From Candidatus Poriferisocius sp. (GTDB taxonomy: Bacteria > Actinomycetota > Acidimicrobiia > Acidimicrobiales > Bin134): a stretch of 64,000 nucleotides of DNA. The stretch spans positions 2,399,380 through 2,463,379 of the forward strand of contig OZ242341.1 in assembly GCA_965208545.1 (NCBI GenBank). The letters are read 5' to 3'. Shown here in pieces: positions 25,783 through 35,585 of the stretch. Each line of letters starts with the position of its first letter. Within the stretch, counting starts at the first letter, position 1. Position numbers and translations under genes: made by a program. Under the pieces are notes generated by a model. It ran no database searches, was not told the DNA's origin, and was given only the letters and a program-made list of their open reading frames with translations.

Positions 25783-26879
25783 TGGCTCTGGCAGAAACCC
25801 CGTTTATTGAAGAGGACCTGGGTCTCAACCCGTCACCAGAATCGTCGCCTCCGGCACCTGAGGCGACTCCAGCCCTAGGGCGGATCCTTGATCCCGGCTT
25901 CAAGCTGACACTGCGCCCCATGCGATATCCGCAGTTCTTTGACATGTACCGCGACGCCATCAAGAACACCTGGACGGTGGATGAGATCGACTTCTCCGAC
26001 GACCTGGTCGACTTGGAGCGCACCCTTCTCCCCGCGGAGAAGCACCTGGTGAATCGGCTGGTGGCCTTCTTCGCCACCGGTGACTCCATCGTGGCCAACA
26101 ACCTTGTGCTGAACCTCTACAAGCACGTCAACGCCCCCGAGGCCCGGATGTACCTGTCCCGTCAGCTCTACGAGGAGGCGCTGCACGTCCAGTTCTACCT
26201 GACCCTGCTCGACAACTACATCCCCGACCTCGACGAGCGGGAGGCCGCGTTCGCCGCCATCGACAACATTCCCTCCATCCGCAAAAAGGCCGAGTTCTGC
26301 TTCCGGTGGATGAACTCGATGGATGACATCGACCAGTGCGACACCCCTCAGCAGCGCCGTCAGTTCTTGTTGAATTTGATCTGCTTCGCCACCTGCATCG
26401 AGGGGCTGTTCTTCTTCGCCGCCTTCGCCTATGTGTACTTCTTGCGATCCAAAGGGCTGTTGAACGGGCTAGCCGCGGGCACCAATTGGGTGTTCCGCGA
26501 CGAGAGCTGTCACATGAACTTCGCCCTCGAGGTGGTGAACACCGTACGGGCCGAGGAACCCGAGCTGTTCGACGCCGAGCTCAGCGAGCAGGTCACTACC
26601 ATGATCTGCGAGGCAGTCGACTGCGAGTACCAATTCGCCGAGGATCTGCTAGGCCAGGGCGTGCCTGGCATGTCGGTGGCCGACACCCGCCGCTACTTGG
26701 AATTCGTGGCCGACCAGCGCCTCAGCCAATTGGGTCTTCCCAAGCAGTTCGGTGCCAAGAACCCGTTCTCGTTCATGGAACTCCAAGATGTGCAGGAGCT
26801 GACCAACTTCTTCGAGCGCACCGTGGCCTCCTACCAAGTGGGTGTAGAGGGCGACGTCGCCTTCGACGAGGACTTCTAA
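25773..26879 (+). CDS. nrdB: Ribonucleoside-diphosphate reductase beta subunit (class Ia, radical Tyr present)
   Basis: EEALHVQFY places Tyr four residues after the ligand His, as in E. coli R2. It also has RDESCHMNF. The start is ATG 25773 (10-nt overlap with nrdA) or ATG 25782 (TAATG overlap). Confidence 0.9.
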   Translation: MRIMALAETPFIEEDLGLNPSPESSPPAPEATPALGRILDPGFKLTLRPMRYPQFFDMYRDAIKNTWTVDEIDFSDDLVDLERTLLPAEKHLVNRLVAFFATGDSIVANNLVLNLYKHVNAPEARMYLSRQLYEEALHVQFYLTLLDNYIPDLDEREAAFAAIDNIPSIRKKAEFCFRWMNSMDDIDQCDTPQQRRQFLLNLICFATCIEGLFFFAAFAYVYFLRSKGLLNGLAAGTNWVFRDESCHMNFALEVVNTVRAEEPELFDAELSEQVTTMICEAVDCEYQFAEDLLGQGVPGMSVADTRRYLEFVADQRLSQLGLPKQFGAKNPFSFMELQDVQELTNFFERTVASYQVGVEGDVAFDEDF

Positions 26880-26934
26880 CCGGCATCGCCCCTCCGGGGC
26901 ACTCCTCGGCGACAAACCGTTGCTGGATTCATCT

Positions 26935-27055
26935 GTTGGCCGGACGCGCTGCGCCCCTGGGCCGGAGGGGGGCAGCCCAGGGGCGCACTTACCCCGTTGA
27001 GGGATCTTCTACAAGGCTACGGGTACCGTGAGGATTCCGGGTGGATGCTGTAGGT
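26935..27055 (-). repeat. Copy A of a roughly 120-bp duplicated module: last 13 codons of the kinase gene, spacer, and terminator hairpin
   Basis: Compared with 29036-29155, the first 36 nt differ at 1 position, the hairpin arms are identical, and the last 25 nt (aggattccgggtggatgctgtaggt) differ at 1 position. Confidence 0.85.
26950..26987. terminator. Strong GC hairpin between convergent nrdB and the histidine kinase gene
   Basis: tgcgcccctgggc ... gcccaggggcgca forms a 13-bp stem with a 12-nt loop. It is positioned to terminate both convergent transcripts. Confidence 0.55.
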
Positions 27056-28261
27056 GGTGGCATTGAGGGTTACTTCGAAGCGGGCACCGCCGAGCTCGGC
27101 GGAATCGCCCACCTGAATGGCGCCCCGGTGGCGATCGACGATGGCCTTGACGAGGGCGAGGCCAATGCCAATACCGCCGGTTTCTCTGGCTCGGCTGCTA
27201 TCGAGGCGAACGAAGCGTTCAAAGATGCGATCACGGTCTTCAGAGCTGATTCCCGGTCCGTCGTCCTCAACCGCGATCAAGACTTTGGTGTCCTCAGCCG
27301 TCACAGTTACCACCACGCGACCCGCGGCATGGATGACTGCGTTGTCCACCAGATTGATCACTACCTGCTCGATCTGCGAGGCCACGCCATCGGCTCGCGC
27401 CACTGCCGGGCAATTCAATGAGATTGCGGACACTTCCTCTTCGAAACGATCAACCGCGTCACGGCACACCGCGGCAACATCAACCTCAGTGGTGTCGAGT
27501 TCCAAGCGATCCTCATCGAGCCGAGCGAGATCCAGCAGATTGGCAACCAGCAGCTGCATGCGCTGAGCCTCCCCCGACACCGTCTCGGCCAGCTTCTGGA
27601 GCTTGATTGGGTCGGGGCTGACCGACGCAATCTCGGCCGCCGCCACAATCGTCGACAGTGGGGAGCGAAGTTCATGGCTGGCGTCGGCGACGAATGCCCG
27701 CTGTCGCTCCGATGACGATTCCAGCCGGTCGAGCATCTCGTTCATCAGAGCAGCAAGCTTGGCGATCTCGTCTTCGCTAGCCGGCACCGGGACCCGCTCG
27801 TTGAGAGTAGAACCTGTGATTTCCGCGACCTGAGCAGAGATGTCTCGCACAGGACGCAAGGCTCGCCCCACTGTCCACCAAATGGCGAGACCGAGTGCCA
27901 CCACTACCACGGGCACGATGATCAGCAGCGCGTTTGACGCGGCGTCAACCCCGGCTTGCACTTCGCGGACGGAAGCATCGGCCAAGGCGCGCTGCTGAGC
28001 ATCGCCGCTGGATCCGCCGTCGGTTGATCCTTCGCCGCCCTCGCCGGCTTCTCCGCTGCCGCCGTCGGTTGATCCTTCGCCGCTAACGGAATGGGATGCC
28101 GATTCCAACGCAGTGCTGAGCGCGCTTCTGGCGTTGTCCTCCAGATCGCGCTCCACCAGCTGGACTATGAAGTACGACGCCAAGCCCAACACGAGAGCCG
28201 TCAACAAGGTGGCGGCCACCGTGGTCCTCCACCGCACCGACCGCAGCCGGCCAAGCTTCAT
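27017..28261 (-). CDS. Two-component sensor histidine kinase (2 TM segments, HAMP, HisKA, HATPase_c)
   Basis: I trimmed the ORF to ATG 28261 (MKLGRLRSVRW...), which overlaps the regulator stop (ATGA). It has the H-box ADASHELRSPLS, the N box DNAVIHA, and the G boxes DDGPGI and GIGIGLALV. The terminal TTYSIHPESSRYP lies beyond the ATPase domain. Confidence 0.88.
   Translation of the reverse strand: MKLGRLRSVRWRTTVAATLLTALVLGLASYFIVQLVERDLEDNARSALSTALESASHSVSGEGSTDGGSGEAGEGGEGSTDGGSSGDAQQRALADASVREVQAGVDAASNALLIIVPVVVVALGLAIWWTVGRALRPVRDISAQVAEITGSTLNERVPVPASEDEIAKLAALMNEMLDRLESSSERQRAFVADASHELRSPLSTIVAAAEIASVSPDPIKLQKLAETVSGEAQRMQLLVANLLDLARLDEDRLELDTTEVDVAAVCRDAVDRFEEEVSAISLNCPAVARADGVASQIEQVVINLVDNAVIHAAGRVVVTVTAEDTKVLIAVEDDGPGISSEDRDRIFERFVRLDSSRARETGGIGIGLALVKAIVDRHRGAIQVGDSAELGGARFEVTLNATTYSIHPESSRYP
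28014..28083 (-). repeat. 25-nt perfect direct repeat with a 45-nt period, inside the kinase sensor loop
   Basis: ccgccgtcggttgatccttcgccgc occurs at 28014-28038 and 28059-28083. It encodes the duplicated GEGSTDGG. Confidence 0.85.
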
Positions 28262-28929
28262 GTCGCCACGACCCGGTAGCCGACTCCCCGCAGGTTCTTG
28301 ATGGTGCTCACGTCGAACGGTTCGTCGACCTTGCGCCGCAAATAGCGCACGTAAACCTCCACGATCTTGGGATCGACATCGGCGTCGATACCCCACACCC
28401 GATTGAATATCTCCAGCTTGGGCACCGGAGTGTCGCCCGCTCTCATCAGCACTTCGAGAACCTGCAACTCAGTGCGGGTCAGATCGATCACCGTCTCTCC
28501 CCGACGCACGGCCGATGAGGCGACATCGAACACCAGATCGCCCACCTGGAGCACGGCGGGTCGCTCGACCGAGGGACGGCGGGCCAGCGCTCGCAACCGA
28601 GCCAATAGCACGACGAATGAGAACGGCTTGGACAGATAGTCGTCGGCACCGGTGTCGAGGGCCTCGGCTTCGTCCCACTCCCCGTCCTTGGCCGTAAGCA
28701 TCAGAATCGGGGTCCAGATCTCGGCCTCGCGCAGTTTGCGGCAGATCTGGTAGCCGTTGAGCCCGGGCAGCATGATGTCCAACACGATCACGTCATAGCT
28801 GCCCACTTTGGCCCGAAACAGCCCTTCGCGGCCGTCGTGCTCGATGTCGGCAGTCACGCCGTGCTCGCTGAGCCCCTCGCGGATCGTCTCGGCCAGCCGC
28901 TCCTCGTCCTCCACCAGCAGAACGCGCAT
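28258..28929 (-). CDS. OmpR/PhoB-family response regulator
   Basis: It has MRVLLVEDEERL, VLDIMLPGLNG, LTAKD and SKPF, followed by a winged helix ending GVGYRV. Confidence 0.9.
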   Translation of the reverse strand: MRVLLVEDEERLAETIREGLSEHGVTADIEHDGREGLFRAKVGSYDVIVLDIMLPGLNGYQICRKLREAEIWTPILMLTAKDGEWDEAEALDTGADDYLSKPFSFVVLLARLRALARRPSVERPAVLQVGDLVFDVASSAVRRGETVIDLTRTELQVLEVLMRAGDTPVPKLEIFNRVWGIDADVDPKIVEVYVRYLRRKVDEPFDVSTIKNLRGVGYRVVAT

Positions 28930-29035
28930 AGGGTTACATCATCCCTCACGCTTGCGAGGCAGGCGCATCACAGTCCGCAGAAGCGCGTGCGTTTGTCGAC
29001 ATTGCGCCGCTCTGAGGAGCAGATGGTGCATGGGA

Positions 29036-29155
29036 GTTGGCCGGACGTGCTGCGCCCCTGGGCCGGAGGGGATAGACCCAGGGGCGCACATGCCCGGTTG
29101 CGGTTCCTTTCTCAAATCAGGGGCATGGGGAGGATTCGGGGTGGATGCTGTAGGT
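29036..29155 (-). repeat. Copy B of the roughly 120-bp duplicated module (end of the lipoprotein gene, spacer, and hairpin)
   Basis: See copy A. This copy overlaps the last 13 codons (DTYSIHPESSPCP) of the lipoprotein gene. Confidence 0.85.
29051..29088 (-). terminator. GC hairpin downstream of the lipoprotein gene
   Basis: The 12-bp arms tgcgcccctggg / cccaggggcgca are identical to those of the hairpin at 26950-26987. The loop differs. Confidence 0.55.
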
Positions 29156-30670
29156 ATCGGGAACCACCGGATCGGCTGAAAGCACCACATCGATGGACTC
29201 GCCCGGTCGCAGGTCGACGCCGATGGTGGGTCCTAGCTCGATGACCTGTCCCTGAGCGCCCATGTGGATCTCCAACCGGGAGGCGCACACCGTTTGGCTG
29301 GTGTTGTTGGTCACCGTCGCCTGAAAGGAGTTGGTGGCCCGGTCGTAGGCAACGCGGTAGTCCAGGTTGTTGAACGTGCCGGACACGGGCTGGCTAATGG
29401 GTGTAGACGGGCTAGTCTCCTCGCCGCCTTCGCCGCCGCCTTCGCTGCCGCCGCCTTCATGGCCCGCTCCTTCGCCGCCGCTCTCGTGGCCGGGGCCTTC
29501 GCCGCCGCTCTCGCTGCCGGATTCACCGCTGCCGCCTTCCGCGCCTTCGCCGGGGTGGCTGGCAACGGAGGTACAGGTGAAGGTCTCGGTTTCGGCTTGC
29601 CACGTGTTGAACCGGGATTGGGGCGCCTCAACGGTGAAGTCCGCTCGGCCCGCCACGTCCAAGGCGGGAATCAGCACGCTTTGCGAGCCGGCTCGGCCGT
29701 CGGCGATCACCTTGACCGACGTATTGCAGATCGGAACCGCGGCCTCGTTTTTCACCCGGGCCAAAAAGCGGTCGTTCTGCTCGTCGTAAGTGATGGCCAG
29801 CTCCAGGTCATTCAGATTCCCCGCATAGGACTCACCAATGACGAGCACCTGGGACGACTTGACTCCCCGGCTCACCCCAGAGCTGGTCAGGTAGGTAGCC
29901 GAGCCCGGCCCAGCCGCCTGGCGACCGGTTTCGGTCCCCTCGGGTCCCTCGCCGCGGCCTTCGCTGCCACCGCTTTCGTGGCCCGCACCCTCACTGCCCT
30001 CGCCGCCGGAGCCTTCACCGGCTTCGCCCGATCCGACTTCGACGTGGGCGCTCCAAGTGTCGAATGGAGCTGCCGTCGAAGGCAGTGTCAGGCGAAGGGA
30101 TTGGCCGGGTGGCAGATCGGTTGGCGTGGTAGGGCCAAGCTCAGTGCCGTTGGATAGGTGAACCTCCACTCGGACTCGGGTCAGAGTCTGGTTGGTGGTG
30201 TTCTCCGCCGTGCCCACGAAGGCGTTGGCCGCCGGATCGAAGGCCAGCTGGAGACGGGCGCCTCCGATGGTCTCGTCGTAGGTCTGGTCGGGTGTCAGCA
30301 GGGTGACGTTGCCGCCCTCGGCTGCTTCGCCGCGGCCAGCTTCGCCGCCGTGGCCGGCTTCCGCCGCTTCACCCATCCCGCCGCCTTCGCCGCTTCCTGA
30401 GTGTTCCCCGGCGCCTTCGGGGCCGGTTGATCCTTCGCGGCTTTCGCCCCCGCTCTCGTGGCCGGCACCCTCGCTGGCCTCAGCACCGCTTTCGTGGCCG
30501 GCACCTTCGCCGGACTCGCCGCTGGCGCACGCACCGGCAACGAGAGCAATCGACAGCACGACGGCGCCCGCCGCGGCGGCAACCCGCTTCTTTGATTTGC
30601 CGAAGAAACCGAGAATCTTGTTCTTGCCTTCTTGGGTCTCTTGATCTTCTGGTCTGGTTTCGATGGTCAT
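29117..30670 (-). CDS. Secreted lipoprotein with three homologous beta-rich domains separated by Gly/Glu/Ser/His low-complexity linkers; function unknown
   Basis: ATG 30670 is preceded by aaggag. It has a signal peptide with the lipobox-like LVAGAC. The linkers carry repeated EGAGHESGG. The three domains end FDTWSAHVE, FNTWQAETE and PDTYSIHPE. I recognise no known family. Confidence 0.75.
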   Translation of the reverse strand: MTIETRPEDQETQEGKNKILGFFGKSKKRVAAAAGAVVLSIALVAGACASGESGEGAGHESGAEASEGAGHESGGESREGSTGPEGAGEHSGSGEGGGMGEAAEAGHGGEAGRGEAAEGGNVTLLTPDQTYDETIGGARLQLAFDPAANAFVGTAENTTNQTLTRVRVEVHLSNGTELGPTTPTDLPPGQSLRLTLPSTAAPFDTWSAHVEVGSGEAGEGSGGEGSEGAGHESGGSEGRGEGPEGTETGRQAAGPGSATYLTSSGVSRGVKSSQVLVIGESYAGNLNDLELAITYDEQNDRFLARVKNEAAVPICNTSVKVIADGRAGSQSVLIPALDVAGRADFTVEAPQSRFNTWQAETETFTCTSVASHPGEGAEGGSGESGSESGGEGPGHESGGEGAGHEGGGSEGGGEGGEETSPSTPISQPVSGTFNNLDYRVAYDRATNSFQATVTNNTSQTVCASRLEIHMGAQGQVIELGPTIGVDLRPGESIDVVLSADPVVPDTYSIHPESSPCP

Positions 30671-30774
30671 TTTCCATCTCCTTTGATGTGACCGGTTCTG
30701 CTCCTCACAGAACCTGATGGTCACAGTGTGCCGAGGAGATGGTTAAAGGAAGGTTGGAATGCGGAGCACTTTAA

Positions 30775-30791
30775 CCCTGCTTTAAGCAGGG
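30775..30791 (-). terminator. Small hairpin downstream of dnaG
   Basis: ccctgc-tttaa-gcaggg is a 6-bp stem. On the minus strand it is followed by ttaaag. This is a weak candidate. Confidence 0.25.
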
Positions 30792-30829
30792 GATTTAGCG
30801 AGACCGACGGTGTTGTTCGATGAGGAGCT

Positions 30830-32698
30830 CTAGGTCCCAGGTCGCAACATCTCTAGGAGGATGCGAGCCTGTTCGGCCTCCCACTCCGATTCCCGGAGCT
30901 GGTCCATGGATGTCTTCAAGCTGGCCACCCGGCGCAGCAGCTCCTCGTCGGCTGAGCCGGTACGGGCTTGGCGCTCCAGGTAGGCCAACTCCCGCTGGGC
31001 CTCCTCATACAACAAGATGGCCATCACAACGTCCTGTCGATGGCGACTCGTCCGCAGCTCCTCGTCCTCATCCACCACCAGCTCCCGCATGAGCTCTGTC
31101 ACCCTTGGGTCTGCCTCAGCCAGCAGCGTGTCCATATCGGGGTATTCCAGCAGAGCCTCGAATACCCCCCGATAGAGAGGATGGTGGAATAGCTCGGGAC
31201 CGATCTCCGGCCACACCCCATCGGGCTCGTTGGCCGCCAGCCACAGCACTTGGCGCTCCACGTTGTTGGGAGGAGGGCTCTCATTGGCCCCATCGCCTTC
31301 GAATTCCGCGTAGTCGCCACGGTAGCCACTGGACTCATGCACTGCGTCAGCCGGGTGGGGGGCGTCTTCCGCCGCGGGTCGGGATGCCCGGCGCGGGCCG
31401 CGGCGGCGAGCATCGGCTGCCACGTTCCGCAGGTGGTCGGCGTTCACCGAGCAGCGGTCAGCTACCTCCACCAAGTACTTGTCCCGGATCTCCGGGTTGG
31501 GGTGCTCGGACACCAGACGGGCGGCCCTTTCCCCCGCTCGGACCTGGCCCTTGACCGTCGATAGGTCGGCCTCGCCCAATACCCGGTTGATGCGGAAGTC
31601 CATGAAGTCCACCGCATCAGAGACCGCGGCCGCCAGCCGCTCCGGATCGTTCTGGGCCAAATCGCCGGGATCAGCCCCGGGAGGCAGGTCGGCCACCGCC
31701 ACCTCCAGTTCGAAGGCGTGCTCCCACTGAGAGAATCGCTCGGCCGCGGTCTGACCAGCGGAGTCCGCGTCGAAGGCCAGCACGATGCGGGGGGCGAACC
31801 GGCGTAGCACCCGAACGTGGTCCTCGGTTAGGGCGGTTCCGCAGGTAGCCACCGCTCGGGCGATGCCGGCCTGGGCGAATCCGATCACGTCGGTGTAGCC
31901 CTCGCACACAATCACCTCACTGGCGTTCACTATGTCCTGTTTGGCCCAATTGAGCCCGTACAACACCCGGGACTTGCGGTAGACGGCGTTGTCCACCGAG
32001 TTCTTGTATTTGGGACCGTCCCCGCCGGGAAGCACCCGTCCGCCGAAGCCCACCGGCTTGCCGCTGGGATCGAAGATGGGAAACAGCAGGCGGGCCCGGA
32101 AGCTGTCCTGGATGCGCCCGCCCTTGTTGCGGAATCCCAGGCCGGCGTCGGAGAAAACCTGCGCCGCCATTCCCTTGTCGGTGCCCACCCCGAGGTCGGC
32201 TGCCAGCGCATCCCAGTCATCGGGGGCCCATCCCAGTTTGTACTGGCGCACCACGTCGCCGTCGTAGCCCCGGTGGCGGAGATAGCCCCGGGCCGGGCCG
32301 GCATCGGCCGCAGTCAGCAGACGCTGGTGATACCACTCAACCGCCTGCTCCAGGGCCTCGGTGAGCTTGCCCCGCTTCTGGCGGTCGGCCCCCTCACCAG
32401 GAGCGGTGTAGCGAAGGGCAATCCCCGCCCGCCCAGCCAGTCGCTCCACCGCCTCGGGAAAGTCGGCGTGCTCCACCTCCCGAAGGAAGGTGATGGCGTC
32501 GCCGCTGGCCTTGCAGCCGAAGCAGTGGTACACGCCCATCTCGGCGTTAACCGAGAAAGACGGGGTCTTCTCGGCATGGAAAGGGCACAGCCCCTGCCAG
32601 CGGCGCCCCACCCGTTTCAGCTGAACGTATTCGCTGATGACCGCGACGATGTCCGTCGCCTCTCTCACCCGGGCCACGTCTTCGTCGTGGATGCCCAC
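30830..32698 (-). CDS. dnaG: DNA primase
   Basis: It has the zinc ribbon CPFHAEKTPSFSVN...YHCFGCKASGD, the Toprim motif VCEGYTDV, and AFDADSAG. The start is GTG. Confidence 0.93.
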   Translation of the reverse strand: MGIHDEDVARVREATDIVAVISEYVQLKRVGRRWQGLCPFHAEKTPSFSVNAEMGVYHCFGCKASGDAITFLREVEHADFPEAVERLAGRAGIALRYTAPGEGADRQKRGKLTEALEQAVEWYHQRLLTAADAGPARGYLRHRGYDGDVVRQYKLGWAPDDWDALAADLGVGTDKGMAAQVFSDAGLGFRNKGGRIQDSFRARLLFPIFDPSGKPVGFGGRVLPGGDGPKYKNSVDNAVYRKSRVLYGLNWAKQDIVNASEVIVCEGYTDVIGFAQAGIARAVATCGTALTEDHVRVLRRFAPRIVLAFDADSAGQTAAERFSQWEHAFELEVAVADLPPGADPGDLAQNDPERLAAAVSDAVDFMDFRINRVLGEADLSTVKGQVRAGERAARLVSEHPNPEIRDKYLVEVADRCSVNADHLRNVAADARRRGPRRASRPAAEDAPHPADAVHESSGYRGDYAEFEGDGANESPPPNNVERQVLWLAANEPDGVWPEIGPELFHHPLYRGVFEALLEYPDMDTLLAEADPRVTELMRELVVDEDEELRTSRHRQDVVMAILLYEEAQRELAYLERQARTGSADEELLRRVASLKTSMDQLRESEWEAEQARILLEMLRPGT

Positions 32699-32707
32699 AG
32701 CGTGAGA

Positions 32708-34237
32708 CTACGCCGAGTTAGCGACAGCTTGGGCGGCAACCGCCTGGGCAGCCGCCAGGCGGGCCACCGGAACGCGGTGAGGGGAGCAGGACACGTAGTC
32801 CATCCCCGAAGCGGCCCAGAACGCGATCGACGCTGGGTCGCCGCCGTGCTCGCCGCACACCCCGATCTCGATTCCGGGGCGAGCAGCGCGGGCCGCAGCC
32901 GCCGCGTCGGCCACCAGCCGGCCCACTCCGCCGGTGTCCAAGGTCTCAAAGGGGTTGGCCGCCAGCAGGCCGTGGTCGATGTAGGGGCGCATGATCCTGG
33001 CCTCGATGTCGTCGCGGCAAAACCCGAAGGTCATCTGGGTCAAGTCGTTGGTGCCCACTGACAAAAAGTCGGCGCAATCCGCAATCTCGGCCGCGGCCAG
33101 CGCCGACCGGGGGGTCTCTATCATCGCGCCCACGGGGATGGACCGCCCGGCCAGGCGGCTCTCGAATCGGGCGAGCTCGTCGGTCACCGCGGCCCGCACG
33201 TGGGCCAGCTCGGGGCCGCCCACCACCAGAGGCACCATAACCCGCACCCGCGGATCGCCGCCGTCAGCCACCCGGCGGGCAGCCGCCTCGCCCGCTGCTT
33301 TGGCCTGGGCCCGGTACAGCTCGGGGCGAAGTACCCCCAGCCGCGCGCCGCGCACGCCGAGCATGGGGTTTTCCTCGACCAGCTCGGGATGATCGGGCAG
33401 AAACTCGTGCAGGGGCGGGTCAAGCAGTCTCACGATCACCGGCAACCCGTCCATAACCTCCAACAGTTCGACCAGGTCGTTCACCTGGGCCTCGGCCAGC
33501 GCGTCCAAAGCGGCTTGCCCGCCATCGGTGATGGCCCGCTGGATGAGGGGCAGCCGCTCACCCAAAAACATGTGCTCGGTGCGGCACAGCCCCACGCCGT
33601 CTGCTCCGAACTCCCGGGCCAGCCGGGCCGAGAAGGCGTCGTCGGCGTTGGCCCGCACCCCTAGGCGTTCAGCGCGCAGTTCGTCAGCCCACTCCAGCAG
33701 CCGGAACAGCTCGTCGGGGATCTCCACGTCGTCCACCTCGGCGGCACCCAGCATGATGGTGCCCGCTGAGCCGTCCACGGTGATGGGATCGCCATTGCGC
33801 AGTTCCACCTCACCCAATCGGGCCGCCCCCGCGGCCACGTCCAAAGACAGGGTCTCCACTCCCACCACCGCGGGAATGCCCCAGCCCCGGGCGATTACCG
33901 CCGCGTGGCTGGCCATGCCCCCCTTGGCGGTGATGATGGCCGCAGCAACCGACATGGCCACTTCATCGGCCGGCGTGGTGAATGGGCGCACAAAGACGGC
34001 GGGAACGCCTTCGTCGTCGGCGTCGAGCACCGCGTCCACCGACAGGCATACCCGTCCCGAGGCCGCTCCCGGCGAGGCGGCCACCCCGTGGGCAGCCACC
34101 GGCCCTGATGGGCCGTCGGCCATCTTGGCGTGAAGCAGGTCTTCGATGTCGATGGGGGAAACCCCCATCACCGCCTCAGCCTGTTCCATTTCACCACGCC
34201 CGACGGCGTTTACCGCAGCGACAACCGGGCTGGTCAC
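32708..34237 (-). CDS. ppdK: Short-form pyruvate phosphate dikinase (phosphohistidine swivel and PEP/pyruvate domains only; no ATP-grasp domain)
   Basis: It has GGMASHAAVIARGWGIPAVVG (catalytic His), LCRTEHMF, NPMLGVRG, GTNDLTQ and MDYVSCSPHRVP (catalytic Cys). The proposed GTG start at 34237 lies 10 nt after the glyQS stop. The upstream part of the track ORF overlaps glyQS. Confidence 0.8.
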   Translation of the reverse strand: MTSPVVAAVNAVGRGEMEQAEAVMGVSPIDIEDLLHAKMADGPSGPVAAHGVAASPGAASGRVCLSVDAVLDADDEGVPAVFVRPFTTPADEVAMSVAAAIITAKGGMASHAAVIARGWGIPAVVGVETLSLDVAAGAARLGEVELRNGDPITVDGSAGTIMLGAAEVDDVEIPDELFRLLEWADELRAERLGVRANADDAFSARLAREFGADGVGLCRTEHMFLGERLPLIQRAITDGGQAALDALAEAQVNDLVELLEVMDGLPVIVRLLDPPLHEFLPDHPELVEENPMLGVRGARLGVLRPELYRAQAKAAGEAAARRVADGGDPRVRVMVPLVVGGPELAHVRAAVTDELARFESRLAGRSIPVGAMIETPRSALAAAEIADCADFLSVGTNDLTQMTFGFCRDDIEARIMRPYIDHGLLAANPFETLDTGGVGRLVADAAAAARAARPGIEIGVCGEHGGDPASIAFWAASGMDYVSCSPHRVPVARLAAAQAVAAQAVANSA

Positions 34238-34247
34238 CGTGTCTGTC

Positions 34248-35585
34248 TCACAGACCGAGCTTGGCGTCCAAGTGCTCGGCCAGCCCGTCGATGGGCACCC
34301 GGTCTTGGTCCATGGTGTCCCGGTCACGCACGGTGACGGCCCGGTCTTCGAGGGTGTCGAAGTCCACGGTCACGCAGAAGGGGGTGCCGATTTCGTCTTG
34401 GCGTCGGTAGCGGCGCCCGATGGATTGGGTCACGTCGTAGTCGGTCATCCATCGGGGCTGGAGCAGGCCCAGCACTTCCTCGGACACCGCTTGGAGATCG
34501 GGCTTCTTGGACAGGGGCAGCACCGCCGCCTTATAGGGCGCCAGCCGAGGGTGCAGTCGCAGCACCGTGCGGGATTCCCCCCGCACCTCCTCGGTATCGA
34601 AGGCGGCTAGCAGAAACGCCATCATCGTGCGAGTGGCCCCGGCGGCCGGTTCGATCACATGGGGCCGGTAGCGCTCGTCAGCCTGCTGGTCGTAGTAGTC
34701 CAAGTCGACGCCTGAGTGCTGGGAATGCTGTGTGAGGTCGTAGTCGGTGCGGTTGGCGATACCCTCCAACTCGCCCCATCCCCAGGGGAACAGGTACTCC
34801 ACATCGGCGGTCCCCGCTGAGTAGTGGCTGAGCTCGTCGGCGTCGTGGGGCCGCAACCGCAGCTTGTCGGCGGGAATGCCCAACTCGGCGTACCAGTCCA
34901 TCCGAGCACCGCACCAGTACTCGAACCATGTGGCGGCCTCGTCGGGGGGCACGAAGTACTCCATCTCCATCTGCTCGAACTCCCGGGTGCGGAAGATGAA
35001 GTTGCCCGGCGTGATCTCGTTGCGGAACGACTTGCCGATTTGAGCGATGCCGAACGGCGGCTTGTTGCGCACGGTGTTCAGCACGTTGGCGAAGTTGATG
35101 AACATGCCCTGGGCGGTTTCGGGCCGCAGGTAAACGTCAGCCCCGGCCCCGGCCACCGGACCGGCCTGGGTGCGGAACATCAGGTTGAATTCCCGGGCCT
35201 CGGTGAACTGGCCCCGGGCCCCGCAGCTAGGGCAGACCTCAGGGTCTTCCAACTGGTCTGCCCGAAAGCGCATACCGCAGTTGCGGCAATCCACCAGGGG
35301 GTCGGTGAAGTTGGTCAGGTGCCCCGAAGCCTCCCACACCTCAGGAGGCGACAAGATGGAGGCGTCTAGGCCGACCACATCGGTGCGGAGCTGCACCATG
35401 GTCCGCCACCAGGCATCCTTCACGTTGCGCAGCAGCAGCACCCCCAAGGGGCCATAGTCGTAGGCGCTGCGGAAGCCGCCGTAGATCTCGGCTGACTGGT
35501 ACACGAACCCCCGCCGCTTGCAGAGATTCACCACCTTGTCCATCAGATCGTCGCCCGCACCCCGGTCGACGTCGCCGCTGCTCAT
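34248..35585 (-). CDS. glyQS: Glycine--tRNA ligase (class II, homodimeric GlyQS type)
   Basis: It has LCKRRGFVYQSAEIYGG..S.YDYGPLG, RPETAQG, FRNEISPR-like FRNEITPGNFIFRTREFEQME, and an anticodon-binding C-terminus. The start is uncertain: ATG 35585 or 35543. The track gives 35624. Confidence 0.9.
   Translation of the reverse strand: MSSGDVDRGAGDDLMDKVVNLCKRRGFVYQSAEIYGGFRSAYDYGPLGVLLLRNVKDAWWRTMVQLRTDVVGLDASILSPPEVWEASGHLTNFTDPLVDCRNCGMRFRADQLEDPEVCPSCGARGQFTEAREFNLMFRTQAGPVAGAGADVYLRPETAQGMFINFANVLNTVRNKPPFGIAQIGKSFRNEITPGNFIFRTREFEQMEMEYFVPPDEAATWFEYWCGARMDWYAELGIPADKLRLRPHDADELSHYSAGTADVEYLFPWGWGELEGIANRTDYDLTQHSQHSGVDLDYYDQQADERYRPHVIEPAAGATRTMMAFLLAAFDTEEVRGESRTVLRLHPRLAPYKAAVLPLSKKPDLQAVSEEVLGLLQPRWMTDYDVTQSIGRRYRRQDEIGTPFCVTVDFDTLEDRAVTVRDRDTMDQDRVPIDGLAEHLDAKLGL

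Follow-up and report, generated by a model that had tools for sequence, protein, structure and literature searches.

A repeat lipoprotein encoded beside a two-component sensor pair in Candidatus Poriferisocius: a candidate cation-binding surface protein of sponge-associated bacteria

In Actinobacteria, the two-component systems of the cell envelope often have a lipoprotein as partner, and here we focus on one such arrangement in a 64,000-nucleotide (nt) stretch of the genome of Candidatus Poriferisocius sp. (contig OZ242341.1, positions 2,399,380 to 2,463,379 of the forward strand), which we refer to as the window. The gene in question, P0001, encodes a lipoprotein with three beta-sandwich domains strung on Gly/Glu/Ser/His linkers, and it lies beside the genes for an OmpR-type response regulator and a histidine kinase. 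The link between the lipoprotein and the adjacent regulator-kinase pair is well supported. The reading of its role that we favour, tentatively and with confidence a little short of even, is that the lipoprotein is a tethered cation-binding, probably transition-metal-binding, surface protein that is both target and partner of the adjacent sensor pair.

The sensor pair lies on the same strand as the lipoprotein gene and consists of two genes:

28258..28929, minus strand: OmpR-family response regulator (Pfam Response_reg and Trans_reg_C).
27017..28261, minus strand: histidine kinase with two transmembrane segments, HAMP, HisKA and HATPase (Pfam and NCBIfam matches).

Conservation of this arrangement was counted at 75 loci with a delimited lipoprotein gene, all in species-representative genomes. 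Multi-domain members of the family (at least 330 amino acids (aa), n = 50) have regulator and kinase directly downstream at 31/50 loci and the pair directly upstream at 2/50, which gives 33/50 with a directly adjacent pair on the same strand. Among the 17/50 that lack one, three lie at contig ends and two further members have the pair no more than 0.7 kb upstream, on the same strand in locus L079 and divergent in L080. Single-domain members (130-314 aa, n = 25) have regulator and kinase directly downstream at 3/25 loci and upstream at 0/25. When all open reading frames (ORFs) at 79 loci were clustered, the regulator and the kinase were the only conserved neighbours; the next commonest were unrelated housekeeping enzymes, namely a short-chain dehydrogenase/reductase (SDR), a DUF255 thioredoxin-like protein, a luciferase-like monooxygenase, an enoyl-CoA hydratase and an ABC ATPase. 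The lipoprotein-sensor link is kept in three unrelated flanks (L002-L004, L005 and L008), and it involves two distinct lineages of sensor. Across phyla, the regulators of the common module share 77% identity and its kinases 69%. The window regulator and kinase are about 32% and 31% identical to their common-module counterparts, and 76-90% identical to their own lineage (L015, L016, L005), the regulator being 76% identical to that of L005. One lipoprotein family is thus tied to two non-orthologous sensor pairs, and the tie to a two-component system that an earlier note on this DNA had proposed is borne out by the neighbourhood survey in adjacency, flanks and sensor lineages alike. The survey clearly rules out the case that the note had named as a refutation, homologues never found beside two-component genes.

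Two observations concern the sensor proteins themselves. The outside loop of the window kinase, of about 90 aa (window 27960-28110), is almost entirely low-complexity Gly/Glu/Ser/Asp sequence, GEGSTDGGSGEAGEGGEGSTDGGSSGD, with no folded sensor domain apparent; it is flanked by conserved helices, and its sequence differs between L015, L002 and L005. Acidic Gly-rich segments occur in the kinase outside loops of both sensor lineages, with His in most of those shown, the window's included. In seven loci (L032:10890-13304 and six others) a single-polypeptide GAF-PAS-HisKA-HATPase-receiver-OmpR protein is encoded 2-3 kb downstream of the module.

The lipoprotein gene and the parts of its product are as follows, with confidence in the modelled structure given as the predicted local distance difference test (pLDDT):

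29117..30670, minus strand: lipoprotein gene P0001, 517 aa; translated ORF, with full-length orthologues 80-91% identical.
30527..30670, minus strand: signal peptide and lipobox LVAGAC, residues 1-48; from the sequence, with a helix at 30-44 in the model.
30311..30526, minus strand: linker 1, residues 49-120; Gly/Glu/Ser/Ala-rich, four His, two GAGHESG units, pLDDT <50.
30023..30310, minus strand: domain 1 (D1), residues 121-216; conserved 'A-type' FxLYD beta-sandwich.
29879..30022, minus strand: linker 2, residues 217-264; one GAGHESGG unit, low pLDDT.
29570..29878, minus strand: domain 2 (D2), residues 265-367; diverged, with one more strand at its N-terminus and a Cys315-Cys366 pair.
29411..29569, minus strand: linker 3, residues 368-420; GPGHESGG and GAGHEGGG units, low pLDDT.
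29120..29410, minus strand: domain 3 (D3), residues 421-517; Cys462-Cys516 pair, keeps E467, H469, E478, H510 and E512.

Translation begins at an ATG at 30670, with a ribosome-binding AAGGAG 7 nt 5' of it, and the N-terminus MTIETRPEDQ is common to the orthologues. The N-terminal part contains a basic KSKKR segment, an 18-residue hydrophobic core and LVAGAC ending at Cys48, and Cys48 is therefore the lipidated first residue of the mature lipoprotein; nearly all relatives have a comparable lipobox, for example xGC or xAC. Local alignment of the domains against 500 shuffles gives z = 21.8 for D1-D3, 10.1 for D2-D3 and 3.8 for D1-D2, and a single hidden Markov model (HMM) built from the three recovers each of them, so the domains are homologous well beyond chance, with D2 diverged. 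The Cys pairs, present in D2 and D3 and absent from D1, fit an extracytoplasmic, oxidising location. The full-length AlphaFold2 model comprises three all-beta domains (block pLDDT 72-97; predicted template modelling score, pTM, 0.32), with residues 45-121, 216-264 and 369-420 at pLDDT <50. About 55% of the protein is folded and the linkers are predicted to be disordered; as modelled, the lipoprotein is a set of folded beads on flexible strings. The linkers hold five GxGHE[SG]G(G) units altogether, and linker 1 is of unequal length between close relatives. A collagen-like Gly-X-Y periodicity of the linkers was rejected by eye, a strict triplet repeat being absent. The earlier note had read from the sequence a signal peptide with a Cys lipobox, three homologous beta domains alternating with linkers, and a position 5' of an OmpR/kinase pair; the lipobox Cys after its hydrophobic stretch, the alignment scores with the shared HMM and the model, and the shared minus strand uphold these in turn.

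Sequences that may control the genes flank the lipoprotein gene on both sides:

30741..30785, minus strand: candidate site for binding of the regulator, in the promoter region of the lipoprotein gene; TTAAAG-N5-TTAAAG (30785-30769) and an inverted copy CTTTAACC (30748-30741).
29051..29090, minus strand: GC-rich hairpin between the lipoprotein and regulator genes; -45.3 kcal/mol, z = -4.6.

Just 5' of the lipoprotein gene is a conserved direct repeat, a different one in each sensor lineage. In the window lineage the element reads CTTAAAGCAGGGTTAAAG, followed after 21 nt by CTTTAACC. The 3.6-Mb genome contains a single exact TTAAAG-N5-TTAAAG, against a chance expectation that we estimate at about 0.02. 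L015, L016 and L002 keep the repeat 5' of their lipoprotein genes, although these lie after the kinase. L005 carries GGTTAAAC ... GGTTTAACC at the equivalent promoter position. In the common module, nearly all loci have GACATaTTTCTGcGACATTTC some 35 nt upstream of a -10-like TATCGT, and the repeat is probably the operator of that module's regulator. A different repeat paired with a different regulator is to be expected of regulator-specific operators, which the respective regulators would bind. As to the wider occurrence of the common repeat, GACATaTTTCTGcGACATTTC followed by TATCGTGAG is near-invariant about 60-90 nt upstream of the lipoprotein start (L018, L025, L028, L037 and about 25 other loci), and the repeat is found in Chloroflexota, Spirochaetia and some Acidimicrobiia. 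The hairpin is probably a terminator or attenuator: 0/200 shuffles fold as well, and it has no U tract. An Rfam scan of 26800-31000 gave no match at E <= 1; a sigma-70 promoter scan found none, and the single terminator-like match was within the number expected by chance.

The order of the three genes is itself variable, and the window retains a trace of how it changed:

26935..27055, minus strand: remnant of a second lipoprotein gene copy (13 codons and hairpin) fused to the kinase 3' end; direct repeat with 29036-29155.

In the window the order is lipoprotein-regulator-kinase, and in the closest relatives it is regulator-kinase-lipoprotein. The direct repeat of about 120 bp (26935-27055 and 29036-29155) corresponds to the last 13 lipoprotein codons and the hairpin, and window 27056-26933 aligns to the 3' end of the L015 lipoprotein gene. 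Because this remnant is fused to the 3' end of the kinase gene, the window kinase has a foreign tail, TYSIHPESSRYP, and ends ...FEVTLNATTYSIHPESSRYP, where the kinases of relatives end ...FEVTLPAAKTPA. The complementary scar is found at L015:4236-4560, where the dnaG spacer, the promoter and the first 84 nt of a lipoprotein gene are joined directly to the post-lipoprotein hairpin 5' of the regulator. Given scars in both genomes, both orders derive from a lipoprotein-regulator-kinase-lipoprotein intermediate by reciprocal deletions, and the trio was kept together throughout this reshuffle. As an example of how tandem duplication and reciprocal deletion permute gene order the window is unusually clean, and sister genomes have kept both scars.

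The domains of the lipoprotein can be given a family name. P0001 passes the NCBIfam model NF038353 (FxLYD_dom) with 35.2 bits against a cut-off of 23 (E = 8.5e-9) in two stretches, the better of which is residues 150-204, and the same cut-off is passed by 6/6 relatives tested (24.7-60.7 bits). Strand 2 reads LQLAFD, LAITYD and YRVAYD in the three domains and resembles the F-x-L-Y-D motif that gave the family its name. By profile score, then, the domains are assigned to FxLYD_dom, a named family without known function; the domain that the earlier note could not recognise has gained a name. A Pfam scan of the lipoprotein at E up to 1 returned DUF7507 alone, weakly (E = 0.19). An AlphaFold2 model of D1 from a 32-sequence alignment is a seven-stranded beta-sandwich (pLDDT 91.9), for which Foldseek found no PDB match at E <0.001; the best E was 9e-3 and the best TM-score 0.54 (SadB), and the top TM-scores, around 0.5, went to generic immunoglobulin (Ig)-like modules (SadB, adaptin appendage, GH2 Ig domains). 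A profile search against PDB sequences likewise gave Ig-like modules only, at E >= 0.036, and Foldseek with the full-length model gave meaningless tandem-beta matches only (TMq <= 0.15). A full-text literature search on 'FxLYD' retrieved no relevant paper, and searches on lipoproteins and two-component systems of sponge symbionts likewise turned up nothing about the family.

Conservation within the domain points to a candidate cation site. Counts were made in 702 distinct domain copies and are given in domain numbering:

N43: kept in 700/702 copies.
E97: kept in 677/702 copies.
E55: kept in 667/702 copies.
E63: kept in 663/702 copies.
H95: kept in 658/702 copies.
H57: kept in 625/702 copies.

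R53, E55, H57, E63, H95 and E97 correspond to R167, E169, H171, E177, H209 and E211 of D1. The full candidate-site set is kept in D1 and D3 and lost in D2, where E-x-H / H-x-E has become K..I / E..E. Mean-field direct coupling analysis, at an effective number of sequences (Meff) of about 250, ranks H57-H95 4th and E63-E97 5th, and recovers a coupled antiparallel ladder between strand 4 and strand 7 (T50-S100, R53-E97, V54-V96, E55-H95, L58-W92). With the analysis restricted to His-bearing copies, E55-E97, E63-E97 and E55-E63 are still among the top 12 pairs. If V54, V56, L58, W92, A94 and V96 are taken to point into the core, E55, H57, H95 and E97 would come to lie side by side on the exposed surface, beside E63. 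The most conserved residues (E-x-H, E and H-x-E) co-vary and sit on adjacent strands, which makes a cation site plausible.

The linkers are 40% Gly, 19% Glu, 14% Ser and 3.6% His. Glu precedes His in 62% of linker cases, as in GEHG[SG]; His stands in GxGHExGG or GEHG contexts, and Met accounts for only 3/517 residues of the protein. Conservation and composition together make cation (metal) binding by the lipoprotein a plausible property. A histidine brace of the lytic polysaccharide monooxygenase (LPMO) or CopC type was considered and rejected, the mature N-terminus being the lipidated Cys.

In the reading that we favour, the lipoprotein would be attached by its lipid to the outside of the cytoplasmic membrane in a sponge-associated member of the Acidimicrobiia, and would work as one unit with the OmpR-type regulator and the histidine kinase encoded next to it. 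The regulator would drive the lipoprotein promoter via the TTAAAG direct repeat. The protein would bind divalent cations, most likely a transition metal, at the patch in D1 and D3 made up of E-x-H (strand 4), the E of the ELGP loop and H-x-E (strand 7), and more weakly on the GxGHExGG linkers, and would in this way act as a tethered buffer. Its loading state would in turn influence the kinase, which has a comparable acidic Gly-rich stretch as its own outside loop. That the lipoprotein is probably a cation (metal)-binding partner of the sensor is suggested by the fact that the family adjoins a sensor-regulator pair in many phyla. What the analysis shows directly is the architecture, the homology, the predicted disorder and the conservation of synteny, patch and upstream repeat; cation binding, ligand identity, regulator binding and feedback on the kinase are steps that we infer.

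Several observations weigh against metal binding or against a partnership with the sensor. The top NCBIfam match of the window regulator is TIGR01387 cztR_silR_copR, but its 213.5 bits fall short of the 279.2 required; that of the window kinase is TIGR01386 cztS_silS_copS, likewise too low with 207.2 bits where 292.55 are needed. That the heavy-metal CusRS/SilRS/CopRS subfamily is, though sub-threshold, the nearest family of both counts in favour of the metal reading. The common-module kinase looks BaeS-like, scoring 226 bits where the cut-off is 500. The clustering of ORFs at 79 loci revealed no efflux pump, oxidase or chaperone gene as a conserved neighbour, and a sensor pair is not adjacent in about 30% of multi-domain and in most single-domain homologues. 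A resemblance to CopC, YcnI or FixH had been suggested and was not borne out: the 50 best PDB matches of D1 in Foldseek include none of CopC, YcnI, PCuAC and FixH, and the lipoprotein matches no metallochaperone Pfam family at E up to 1. The co-variation at the patch is partly due to loss of the site in a whole subfamily, the D2-type copies. Linker His is sparse, about one per 10-20 residues, with almost no Met or Cys, and linker length varies between strains, as it would for simple spacers. Finally, because the 187-nt spacer between the lipoprotein and regulator genes contains a strong hairpin, the lipoprotein, the regulator and the kinase need not share one transcript.

A role in signalling that involves no metal chemistry would accommodate many of the same observations. 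The lipoprotein would contact the kinase loop and report some other envelope or host cue, with the His/Glu patch serving as a protein interface, and the actinobacterial lipoproteins CseA and LpqB are thought to contact their kinases directly in such a way. Synteny with two different sensor pairs agrees with this, as do the absence of metal-handling genes among the conserved neighbours and a window kinase that has only a low-complexity loop in place of a folded sensor domain. However, a patch of two His and three Glu that is kept across non-orthologous kinases with unlike outside regions is hard to explain as a kinase-specific interface, and single-domain members exist without any sensor pair. 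We regard this alternative as unlikely.

The distribution of the family bears on a second alternative. A whole-protein search listed 121 matches, all of which (121/121) carry 2-5 domain copies, and the usual layout in relatives is A-B-A, with sizes of 96, 106 and 96 aa. Searched for with D1, the family comprises 798 clusters (50% identity) at E <= 1e-3, of which 579 reach E <= 1e-10; in species-representative genomes, a scan with the A-type alignment picked up at least 493 coding relatives. The metagenome-assembled genomes (MAGs) that carry the family represent at least seven phyla, and many come from sponges; by title they belong to Dehalococcoidia and SAR202, Caldilineaceae, Acidimicrobiia including Ca. 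Poriferisodalis, Poribacteria, Latescibacterota, Spirochaetia, Phycisphaerae and Paracoccaceae. The sponge Aplysina aerophoba is the source of the bins recorded under MPMJ, MPMM, MPNC, MPNN and MPNQ (PMC5649159). Only 2/201 sampled Acidimicrobiia genomes have the domain; the window's own genome has one family copy, and in the other genome no sensor pair adjoins the gene. Window D1 is 52-69% identical to A-type domains from other phyla, and this high cross-phylum identity, together with the patchy distribution, argues for horizontal spread. The family is likely tied to the sponge habitat.

Variant architectures were also observed. The Ca. Poriferisodalis protein P0045 (locus L019) has a circularly permuted domain order (D2-type, D3-type, A/D1-type) relative to the window protein, and no sensor pair lies within 7 kb of its gene. 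Single-domain members of 130-200 aa consist of a lipobox, an SGEHG linker and one A-type domain and are common in Dehalococcoidia and Poribacteria MAGs; an adjacent sensor pair is mostly absent from the examples L020, L023, L029-L031, L036, L040, L052 and L072.

A family that is found in MAGs of many phyla, A. aerophoba bins included, and that is rare among the sampled Acidimicrobiia might instead be a host-facing coat or adhesin of sponge symbionts, in which Ig-like beads on anionic spacers bind matrix or shield the cell and the sensor pair only switches production on. The Ig-like fold would suit such a role, and RbmA-type and FN3-type tandem proteins are among the weak matches of the full-length model. 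The unusually high A-type identity across phyla, combined with invariant polar residues, is instead typical of a fixed small ligand, and the clustered ORFs at the 79 loci include no adhesin-type neighbours or secretion genes. This role, too, strikes us as improbable.

A further proposal would make the lipoprotein the ligand-binding antenna of a horizontally mobile, sponge-holobiont-specific three-gene module, with the kinase reading its loading via ion-bridged disordered Glu/His-rich segments; we consider it something of a long shot. It is very unlikely that the lipoprotein is a pH- or proton-responsive element that signals via the kinase, for example in a host phagosome: the linkers and patches titrate near pH 4-7 and so could undergo an acid-driven conformational change, and the sponge-symbiont setting is compatible with this, but composition is its sole basis and no acid-resistance genes are linked in the ORF clustering. 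That lipoprotein and sensor pair are neighbours by chance or shared horizontal transfer, with no functional link, is scarcely credible, for although a gap with a hairpin parts the two genes, a share of multi-domain homologues is unlinked and the common module is one orthologous unit whose many occurrences are not independent events, adjacency has outlived both the duplication-deletion reshuffle and transfer to other flanks, recurs with a non-orthologous sensor pair, and is accompanied by nothing else conserved nearby.

Comparison with known systems highlights both similarities and differences. As in other NF038353 FxLYD proteins, the domains of the window protein and of all relatives tested pass the family cut-off and form a small beta-sandwich; the window subfamily differs in stringing one to five copies on Gly/Glu/Ser/His linkers behind a lipobox and in its tie to two-component systems. 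CseA (cseABC) and LpqB (mtrAB-lpqB) are actinobacterial sensor-associated lipoproteins. Like them, the window family combines a lipobox with conserved synteny with an OmpR-type regulator and a kinase, and on that basis it ranks among the sensor-associated accessory lipoproteins. Its fold and repeat architecture differ from theirs, and it is a cross-phylum family rather than part of the actinobacterial core, as its rarity in Acidimicrobiia illustrates. There is no sequence similarity either: against the NCBIfam models for MtrAB, CseB and others the window sensor pair stays below the cut-offs, and none of these families is matched by the lipoprotein. CopC, YcnI and PCuAC share with the window protein a small extracytoplasmic beta-sandwich with conserved His, whereas the window protein has neither an N-terminal His brace nor a Met-rich motif.

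SilE is a soluble periplasmic protein, disordered throughout, that uses His/Met motifs. The window protein, in contrast, is lipid-anchored, has its best-conserved candidate site in folded domains and is poor in Met, with Glu-His dyads in its linkers; repeated His/Met motifs of the SilE/PcoE type are absent from its sequence. SilE and PcoE have been described as 'molecular sponge' proteins beside silRS/pcoRS, proposed to soak up metal ions (PMC5008109), and the window protein is like them in being an extracytoplasmic, His-bearing chain with a CusRS-like sensor pair encoded next to it; its linkers are predicted to be disordered, though about 55% of it is folded. In Synechocystis sp. PCC 6803, the copMRS genes encode the exported binding protein CopM with the CopRS two-component system (PMC4335983). 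The gene order there is also exported binding protein, regulator, kinase, and CopM is itself among the products of the system beside which it is encoded. It is no lipoprotein built of beta-sandwich repeats, and there is no sequence link to it, since the weak DUF7507 match is the only Pfam match of the window protein; the likeness rests on context. We therefore draw the analogy to CopM-CopRS and SilE/PcoE by context, the proteins being unrelated in sequence and fold.

Elsewhere in the window, a pyruvate-phosphate-dikinase-like ORF at 32708-34327 (minus strand) matches PEP-utilizers and PEP-utilizers_C only, its N-terminal ATP-grasp apparently missing; the equivalent in relatives is 506 aa long and has the same two Pfam families.

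What this analysis adds is the FxLYD assignment, the structural models, the negative fold search and the family-wide synteny counts, together with the two sensor-pair lineages each with its own repeat, the reciprocal-deletion history and the co-varying His/Glu patch. Large as it is, the family is uncharacterised, and the cross-phylum identity of its domains (52-69%) and of the usual partner regulators (about 77%) points to horizontal spread and to a function that matters in the sponge habitat. If its ligand is a metal, the lipoprotein would bring a new fold and architecture to the few sensor-coupled extracytoplasmic metal buffers (CopM, SilE/PcoE, ZraP); if it is an antenna read by the kinase, sensing would proceed via a shared disordered chelating interface and not via a folded sensor domain. 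As a self-contained unit of sensor and surface protein, with a candidate site and a candidate operator, it provides a tractable entry to what uncultured sponge symbionts sense.

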